A model generated the notes under the pieces. That model did not search any database. It was given only the letters and a program-made list of their open reading frames with translations, and had not been told where the DNA came from. Shown here piece after piece: positions 31,619-32,970 of a stretch of 64,000 nucleotides of DNA; positions within the stretch are counted from its first letter, which is position 1; the number at the start of each line of letters is the position of its first letter. A program made the translations under genes and the position numbers. Source of the stretch: an uncultured Planctomycetia bacterium (GTDB lineage: Bacteria > Planctomycetota > Planctomycetia > Pirellulales > S012-138); assembly GCA_963809785.1 (NCBI GenBank), contig CAWEKV010000001.1:3464408-3528407 (forward strand), read 5' to 3'.

Positions 31619-32970
31619 CTATTCCAGCCTGAGCACTTCCACATCCTGTCCCGCGCAAAACTCCCGATCCCCTTCGGGGAAGTGAATTAGCGCGTCGGCC
31701 GCGGCGAATGCTCGCAGGTCCGCTGACCCTTGCCAAACGACAGGCAAGACCGTGGCCCGGCCGTTTTCGGACTCAAGCCGGGCGGGATGGTAGGTCGGCC
31801 GGTTGCCCCGGTGGATAAAGTCCTTGGTCAACCGCGCCAGAATGGGTTCGCGCACCGCATCGGTGTGGCCGGCCAGCCGCCGCAGGGCCGGCCGGACGAA
31901 AAGCTCGAAGCAAACCAGCGTGCTGACCGGGTTGCCGGGCAGGCCGAAGATGAGCGTGGGTGAACGCGGAATGCGGAGTTCGGAATGCGGAGTTCCCGAT
32001 CCGGCCTTCATCCGTTCCGAATTCCGAATTCCGAATTCCGAATTCTCTTGCGTCCCAAACCACAGCGGCTTGCCCGGCTTCAGGTTCACCTTGTGAAAGA
32101 CCTGCCGCACGCCCAACTCTGCCAGCACGCCCGGCACGAGGTCCAGCACGCCGGCTGAGACGCCGCCGGAGAGGATGAGCACGCCGGACCGCAGGCCCTC
32201 GGCAATCGTCCGCCGCAGCTCGTCCCGTTCGTCGCGCACGATGCCCAAGTCGCGAGGGGTGGCGCCGGCCGCATGCACCAGGGCAGCGAGCATCGGCCCG
32301 TTGCTGTTGCGGATTTGACCGGGGCCGGGCGTCCCAGCAGCGGGCACCAGCTCGTTGCCGGTGGAAATGATCGCGACCGTTGGCCGGGAAATGGCGCTCA
32401 CCTCGGCCCGGCCCACCTCGGCCAAGAGGCCGATGTCGCTGGGCCGCAGCGCCAGCCCGGCCCGCAGCACGATCTCGCCCTGGCGCATGGCGACTGCCCG
32501 GCGGAGGATATTCTGCCCCGGCGTCACCTTGGTCGAGCGGATGCGCACGCGCGAGTCGTCGATCAACTCCGTCTCCTCGACCATCACCATCGAGTCGGCG
32601 CCTGCCGGTAGGGCGCGCCGGTCATCACCCGCGTGGCCGTGCCAGGCGTGACCGTCCGCGTGGGCACTGCGCCGGCCACGACTTCTTCCAGGATTCGCAG
32701 CTCGACGGCCGTAGGGTCCGCTGTGCGGACCAATGCGGCGGAGCCTTTCAGGGACGGCGTCGGTGAAGAGGTCCGCACAGCGGACCCTGCGTCGGCCGCG
32801 ATCACCGCGTAGCCGTCCACGAGCGCCTTGTCGTGCGGCGGCGAGTCGATGTCGCTGGCCACGTCTTCGGCCAGGCACAAGCCGAGGGCCTCCCCCAGCG
32901 GCATGCGCCCCGCCGCGGCGGGTCGCGCGGCGGCAAGCACGGCATCCAGGGCTTGGCTGACAGTGATCAT
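31619..32970 (-). CDS. moeA: Molybdopterin molybdenumtransferase MoeA, with two palindromic insertions read in frame and one frame change near 32620
   Basis: N-terminus in ORF 32584-32970 ([30 protein letters not shown]). Remainder in ORF 31619-33019 ([81 protein letters not shown]). Confidence 0.85.
31965..32045. repeat. Intragenic hairpin array (cggaatgcggagtt x2 / ccgaatt x4) inside moeA
   Basis: cgcggaatgcggagttcggaatgcggagttc .. gttccgaattccgaattccgaattccgaattc. Translated in frame as ..[31 protein letters not shown].. between KPGKPLWFG and FGLPGNPVS. Confidence 0.85.
32714..32787. repeat. Intragenic GC-rich hairpin (18-bp perfect arms) inside moeA
   Basis: gggtccgctgtgcggacc (32714-32731) against ggtccgcacagcggaccc (32770-32787). 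Translated in frame as ..[26 protein letters not shown].. Confidence 0.85.

Follow-up and report, generated by a model that had tools for sequence, protein, structure and literature searches.

The only moeA/glp gene of a Pirellulales genome carries two hairpin-forming repeats of unrelated kinds within its coding region. The most probable reading, to which we assign a probability of about 0.8, is that two non-autonomous hairpin repeats were gained in the ancestor of the genus and have been kept as loops in a MoeA protein that still works. The gene lies on the minus strand at positions 31619-32970 of the window, the 64,000-nt stretch of DNA that was analysed, and encodes a MoeA/Glp molybdopterin molybdotransferase in which the domains MoeA_N, MoCF_biosynth and MoeA_C follow each other in order, all above their Pfam cut-offs, across two reading frames. 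The MoeA motifs GGVS, KPGKP and PGNP are conserved, and orthologues retrieved by protein search carry the name gephyrin-like molybdotransferase Glp. Relatives with solved structures are Cnx1E, gephyrin E and E. coli MoeA (PDB 1G8L, 2FTS, 5G2R); the window protein shares the three Pfam domains and the motifs of MoeA, gephyrin E and Cnx1E and differs from them by two extra loops.

The two elements, termed E1 and E2, would have entered moeA in the common ancestor of the genus, E2 in the form of an inverted pair of GTAG-tagged REP units separated by an arbitrary 38-nt spacer. Both inserts probably survived because each spans a whole number of codons, is free of stops in the sense frame and came to lie at the tip of a beta-hairpin on the protein surface. 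They would be transcribed and translated together with moeA as disordered loops of 23 and ~24 residues, and MoeA would keep working despite the two loops.

Two hairpins from different repeat families

E1 (31962-32045) is a hairpin with arms of heptamer repeats, adding ~24 codons between the motifs KPGKPLWFG and FGLPGNP. The arm towards the 5' end of the gene (32015-32045, minus strand) consists of four tandem GAATTCG units read as 10 residues, whereas the arm towards the 3' end (31962-31995, minus strand) consists of two copies of the 14-nt CGGAATGCGGAGTT, each with two 7-nt subunits, so that complements of GGAATGC and GGAGTTC alternate along this arm, which is read as 11 residues. The arms are ~83% complementary and the RNA fold reaches -36.1 kcal/mol (z = -2.7), a stability matched by 1 of 200 dinucleotide shuffles. 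With its tandem 7-nt units, of which at least 3-4 are required, E1 belongs to the STRR-like heptanucleotide repeats. It groups with the GAATGCG unit type, which occurs at 11 loci in the genome, and is one of ~150 such loci of a heptanucleotide-repeat class that is still unexplained. At the orthologous site the same base differs in each of the four units, which read GAATTCG in the window, GAATGCG in the closest relative (L001) and GGAGTGC in the next one (L002). As the four units change together, homogenisation of the arrays appears to outpace their divergence; the second arm fails to follow, which leaves one mismatch per unit.

E2 (32703-32798) is a REPIN-like inverted dimer of GTAG-tagged REP units, with a net gain of 69 nt (23 codons) between DGYAV and ELRILEEVV. 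Its first unit, GTAGGGTCCGCTGTGCGGACC (32711-32731, plus strand), has the composition of a REP, namely a GTAG tag and a short G+C-rich palindrome with a 7-bp stem and a 3-nt loop (GTAG-GGTCCGC-TGT-GCGGACC). The second unit (32770-32790, minus strand), whose tag has degenerated to GCAG, is inverted with respect to the first, and together they form a larger hairpin. The arms of this hairpin (32703-32731 and 32770-32798) measure 29 nt, are 86% complementary with a perfect 19-bp core, and enclose a spacer of 38 nt (32732-32769). The RNA fold reaches -64.4 kcal/mol (z = -6.6), and none of 200 dinucleotide shuffles is as stable.

Arm coordinates, complementarity and RNA folds thus bear out the proposal of an earlier sequence-only reading that two palindromic elements lie at these positions in the moeA frame. 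It had also described both as free of stops, and in the local frame of moeA they are; this is weak evidence on its own because E1 is open in five of the six frames and E2 in three. In a heptamer array the three frames of one strand all give the same cyclic peptide, so that stops are either absent from all of them or present in all.

The E2 unit GTAGGGTCCGCTGTGCGGACC is dispersed over five of the six contigs, with ~25 units and eight inverted dimers. In these dimers the tags point outward, and the spacers range from 19 to ~56 nt and are unrelated in sequence. The window spacer and that of the orthologous L001 element are no more similar than expected by chance (22 matches, as opposed to a mean of 21.8 after shuffling). 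Since the spacers of the two species are unrelated, a single insertion followed by divergence is not proven, and conversion by other copies of the family or re-insertion is possible. The sequence AATGCGGC lies beside the left E2 arm in L001 and its complement beside the right arm in the window, an observation which prompted a test for inversion of the spacer between the two species. A flipped spacer was rejected, given that neither orientation aligns better than shuffles. The centres, unrelated among family members, do not fit a MITE, which would combine terminal inverted repeats with a conserved interior and a target-site duplication; no target-site duplication is conserved between the window and L001. 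An Rfam scan of 31000-33600 by E-value returned only a chance match to sR53 below the gathering score.

The REPIN concept reportedly goes back to Bertels and Rainey in 2011. The architecture of REP dimers and REPINs is elsewhere attributed to REP-associated tyrosine transposases (RAYTs; IS200-like, Y1) that act on single-stranded DNA hairpins. A profile search of the genome yields 15 Y1_Tnp matches; no E2-type REPs occur within 1.5 kb of the 13 best of these, and other hairpin types flank some of the matches. None of six Y1 genes tested reaches the NCBIfam cut-off for RAYT (NF047646; 80 bits, best 40.9 bits), and most of the six fit IS200/IS605 TnpA better. With no RAYT beside E2-type REPs and none above the cut-off, the mobilising enzyme is therefore one that we infer; a RAYT for E2 may be encoded in a part of the genome that is not assembled, or a diverged family may supply it. 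One weak Y1 match (C6:894980-895195) within G000:C6:894858-895671 has the hairpin CTTTCGCTCCGCGAAAGAACGCCCTTTCGCGGAGCGAAAG on both sides, the layout that a RAYT and its own REPs should show, here for a REP family other than E2.

Hairpins with perfect arms of at least 13 nt located within 140 nt of each other were counted over the whole genome, giving 1,564 loci. Their position in genes was judged by a codon-usage likelihood trained on long ORFs, for which a stop-free frame had to be coding-like on both flanks. This test is passed by 105 of the 1,564 loci, which is a lower bound and not a census given a conservative test that passes 28% of random positions, partly since the assembly is frame-broken; it is passed by 441 of 1,564 random positions. 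Hairpins are therefore depleted about four-fold in genes, far from excluded. Pfam searches of ten host ORFs recovered real genes with the element inside a domain match (UvrD_C, PSD1, PSCyt2, AMP-binding and the class I/II Aminotran_1_2). Hairpins with heptamer arms number 147 loci and 23 unit types under strict criteria, and the dispersed copies of some of these families have arm irregularities in common, e.g., AATGACGAATGACGGAATGACGAATGA at three or more loci, which indicates copying between loci.

Several copies in open frames were noted in addition. An open frame of 1187 aa without a Pfam match (G000:C3:519844-523404, L012) contains three in-frame hairpin elements, two of which are GTAG REP dimers of the E2 type read in a frame that differs from that of moeA (GRVRSAD... 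vs. GSAVRT...). The listed in-gene copies of another family, GTAGGACGGATTTCCAATCCGTCC (e.g., G000:C1:296877, 821233, 2479041, and 2654059), are all read in one frame, VGRISNPS...GRIGNPSY; one alternative frame of this family runs into the TAG of the GTAG tag.

Orthologues and the origin of the inserts

A search of 5.8 billion proteins identified thousands of Pirellulales MoeA sequences, mostly 403-410 aa long, and 116 of them were aligned. Site A (DGYAV..LEEV), the location of E2, spans 14 residues in 111 of the 116 orthologues and 37 in the window, while site B (KPLWFG..FGLPGNP), the location of E1, spans 11 residues in 82 of the 116 and ~35 in the window; the insert sizes given in the sequence-only reading agree with these lengths. 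The sole orthologue with both full inserts, at the same codons, is P0003 from the only other species of the genus (genome G001, locus L001), an intact protein of 450 aa that is 78% identical. MoeA of the remaining 29 relatives searched aligns as three blocks which skip both inserts. L002 shows a degenerate single REP-like unit at site A and, at site B, one arm of four heptamers (4 x GGAGTGC) without loop or second arm. The segments occur only in the two genomes of the genus and are members of dispersed repeat families; judged from this comparison, they are insertions and not the ancestral, non-palindromic loops that the earlier reading had named as a possible counter-finding.

Less probable, and yet the strongest competitor, is an origin of E1 by growth in place, where slippage would have expanded a heptamer seed and fold-back or template-switch copying would then have produced the complementary arm. 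Several observations point this way: L002 has one arm at the same site, another lineage (L022) has two non-complementary heptamer arrays, and the shift of all four units by the same base among the window, L001 and L002 amounts to fast array turnover within the locus. Polymerase slippage is also credited for heptamer arrays in the literature (PMC4679880). However, other heptamer-arm families share arm irregularities between dispersed copies (AATGACGAATGACGGAATGACGAATGA), the GAATGCG unit type is found at 11 loci, and the one-arm state of L002 is explained equally well as the remnant of a deletion. We thus regard growth of E1 in place as doubtful and prefer the gain of both hairpin repeats in the ancestor of the genus.

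Site B is expanded by 17-27 residues in at least six lineages, which lie dispersed across a tree of the 116 orthologues computed with FastTree, its branch support not assessed. Three of these lineages were examined as DNA. The inserts of L021 and L023 are heptamer-armed hairpins built from GTTCAAG (z = -6.3) and GGAGACC (z = -6.7) units, respectively, and that of L022 comprises the two non-complementary heptamer arrays mentioned above (CTCGCTC/ACTCCGC); the units are unrelated among the three. The presence of unrelated heptamer hairpins in the same MoeA loop of several lineages is new, as is the concerted change of heptamer units. Tentatively, and with the odds against it, the beta-hairpin tip at site B could be a spot at which heptamer-armed hairpins preferentially land or nucleate throughout the Pirellulales. 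If so, arrays would be rebuilt from a single unit faster than by mutation, their placement would be directed by local DNA sequence or structure and would not be random, and moeA would represent a natural time series for the birth and turnover of an unexplained repeat class.

A third insert site is located after VMVEETE in domain II of MoeA_N, where P0005 (L002) contains ...GSEILRCAQNDTGTQNDN and P0108 (L022) contains ...SPLAPCGRGAGGEGYSE. We take both inserts to be typical translations of repeat elements that are widespread in metagenomic genomes.

Frame break, selection and loop position

As assembled, moeA is divided into two ORFs with E2 and E1 in different frames, a feature overlooked in the sequence-only reading. 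The N-terminal 120 codons, including E2 (32611-32970, minus strand), cover MoeA_N profile positions 1-94 in the frame of ORF 32584-32970. The other 330 codons and the stop, including E1 (31619-32610, minus strand), cover MoeA_N positions 94-160, MoCF_biosynth and MoeA_C in the frame of ORF 31619-32620. The frame changes at a 1-nt gap, probably an assembly error, at 32607-32612 (minus strand), where the window reads GCGCC-CTACCG and both relatives read GCGCCGCTNCCG; by alignment, one base is absent relative to L001 as well as L002. This base lies outside any homopolymer run, and the gap may therefore be a real recent mutation.

Most likely, the frameshift is an error of an indel-rich assembly and not a biological lesion, because neighbouring genes, alaS, rpoC and a molybdopterin oxidoreductase are frame-broken as well and CheckM completeness is just 66.8% for this assembly of 8.47 Mb in six contigs. 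Over the 3.4 kb that are syntenic with L001, three of four neighbour genes change frame. Elsewhere in the genome, the catalytic domain of alaS is split into five pieces, domain 1 of rpoC into three and the molybdopterin oxidoreductase into four. At the local rate of ~1 frame break per kb, one break in the 1.35-kb moeA is what error alone would be expected to produce, and frame breaks in the present assembly should not be taken as pseudogenes. Relative to its L001 orthologue, the Gly-zipper lipoprotein gene beside moeA (33113-33811, plus strand) contains two frame changes, and the gene beyond tsaB (34787-35084, minus strand) contains one, which fits an indel-rich assembly.

The alternative that moeA is a true pseudogene in this strain, with a real frameshift and repeats tolerated since the gene is dead or dying, is consistent with the split ORF and with a missing base outside a homopolymer run. 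It is nevertheless quite unlikely: both inserts are older than the separation from G001, where moeA is intact; since that separation the core has been evolving at an omega of 0.20; and alaS and rpoC, both essential, show the same kind of breakage. Nor is there a second moeA in the genome, the companion of a dead gene envisaged as a counter-case in the sequence-only reading, as whole-genome tblastn and a genome search returned only the moeA locus and short matches to other copies of the E1 peptide. Yet moaC is intact and genes for a molybdopterin oxidoreductase and for a protein of the sulfite-oxidase type are present, so that the pathway is in use. The preferred reading, a working MoeA with two acquired loops, agrees with the comparison to L001, where, the 1-nt artefact aside, 450 codons align without indel. 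For the 395 codons of the core, dN = 0.12, dS = 0.60 and omega = 0.20, as opposed to an omega of 0.56 for the 55 insert codons; the amino-acid sequences are 81.5% identical outside the inserts and 52-54% identical within them. The identities inside the inserts are concentrated in residues encoded by the arms, while those encoded by the spacers are essentially unrelated. These rates indicate purifying selection on MoeA while it carried the inserts, and they suggest that constraint on the inserts acts on their length and on the DNA of the arms, and hardly on the peptides.

An AlphaFold2 model of P0003 (mean pLDDT 90.9, pTM 0.85) places both inserts, with low confidence, at turns of beta-hairpins, in line with the loop positions anticipated from sequence. 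The 10-residue blocks spanning the inserts (61-90 and 311-340) average a pLDDT of 51-79, and the only other block below 80 is the native loop 271-280 (pLDDT 68). In the model, strands E53-56/E89-97 and E304-308/E339-344 enclose the inserts, each pair within a beta-hairpin. With HMMER, the site-A insert interrupts the alignments to all three solved relatives; the site-B insert terminates those to E. coli MoeA and gephyrin E, whereas Cnx1E is aligned across it with gaps. Translation of the inserts as part of MoeA is suggested jointly by the conserved frame, by purifying selection and by the structure model.

The loops themselves are probably neutral. An adaptive role, in which they alter MoeA function or partner binding or in which the mRNA hairpins regulate translation or mRNA stability, appears very unlikely. 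Retention of both inserts in two species across a dS of 0.6, retained hairpin potential in the window and L001 despite sequence change, and the expansion of the site-B loop in several lineages would be in keeping with such a role. Against it stand the poor conservation of the insert peptides (52-54% identity, omega 0.56) with their essentially unrelated spacer-encoded residues, their low pLDDT, the occurrence of the same elements in many unrelated proteins and mostly in intergenic regions, and the loss of most of both inserts in the sister lineage L002. The idea that the palindromes are artefacts of long-read assembly can be dismissed almost entirely, for although the assembly is clearly prone to single-base indels, the same two elements occupy the same codons in a second species (L001/G001), known from an independent metagenome-assembled genome, and members of their families are dispersed over all contigs.

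Relation to known repeat elements

Both kinds of element have already been described in bacteria, and moeA is a clear new example of their probable in-frame read-through. Intragenic dimers of GTAG-tagged REPs have variable spacers of 20-100 bp and encode 20-30 residues (Di Nocera, De Gregorio and Rocco, 2013; PMC3733652). They are commonest in Opitutus terrae, a member of the PVC superphylum, and the host genes include a UvrD/REP helicase; Rhodopirellula baltica possesses several REP families together with many tyrosine transposase genes (PMC3733652). E2 resembles these dimers in its tag and G+C-rich palindrome, its inverted units, its variable spacer and its membership of a multi-copy family. 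In contrast, the E2-type family is small (~25 units) and no cognate RAYT flanked by E2-type REPs was found; neither moeA as a host gene nor the Pirellulales lineage appears among the published cases considered (PMC3733652).

E1 has its counterparts among heptanucleotide repeats, which include the cyanobacterial STRR and the GGGNATC repeats of Xanthomonas and Nostoc, for which a preference for four units is reported (Rehm et al., 2015; PMC4692102), as well as the TAACTGA repeat of Beggiatoaceae (MacGregor, 2015; PMC4679880). The E1 arms likewise consist of tandem 7-nt units, four per array. Such repeats are mostly intergenic and occur occasionally in ORFs in the stop-free orientation, as in moeA. 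The arrays of the present genome differ in being complementary pairs that form hairpins, with at least 23 unit types in one genome; their units are not G-tracts and thus come without a G-quadruplex rationale, and E1 lies in frame inside the core domain of an enzyme.

The Rickettsia palindromic elements (RPEs), which the sequence-only reading had offered as precedent, are small palindromic repeats inserted in frame into housekeeping genes at positions on the protein surface, with the host protein apparently functional (Ogata et al., 2000; PMC3733652, PMC10969869). As to behaviour, the comparison holds, and an RPE-like reading of the moeA inserts is supported; the likeness is in behaviour only, and intragenic GTAG-tagged REP dimers (PMC3733652) and heptamer-repeat hairpins are the closer precedents. 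RPEs have a conserved internal sequence, whereas the moeA elements combine conserved arms with variable centres, and the host of the latter is a large free-living genome as opposed to a reduced intracellular one.

An enzyme needed for every molybdoenzyme thus tolerates two unrelated DNA hairpins, born of selfish elements or slippage, inside folded domains, and the planctomycete Pirellulales join the hosts with repeat-decorated proteins. Inserts of this kind make proteins longer, disrupt homology alignments and can lead annotation astray. The orthologous moeA genes, among which are full elements, a one-arm remnant, empty sites and a loop occupied by different elements, form a series that is useful for studying the origin and decay of REP dimers and heptamer hairpins.

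The present genome also has a UvrD gene with two in-frame elements, a further likeness to the GTAG-tagged REP dimers of PMC3733652. This UvrD/PcrA helicase gene (G000:C1:819520-821790, L015) carries both its elements in UvrD_C, one a heptamer hairpin of GGACGTT units and the other a REP dimer of the GTAGGACGGATTTCCAATCCGTCC family, which recalls the enrichment reported for REPs inside repair genes. In the window, a third hairpin directly follows the moeA stop (31548-31620; -45.5 kcal/mol, z = -4.75) and is composed of the words GGGGCACG and CGTGCCCC. It is followed at 31509-31543 by a 14-bp inverted repeat, TCGCCCTTCCGTCG / CGGCGGAAGGGCGA, and the arm words of the third hairpin recur at ~7 other sites in the genome.
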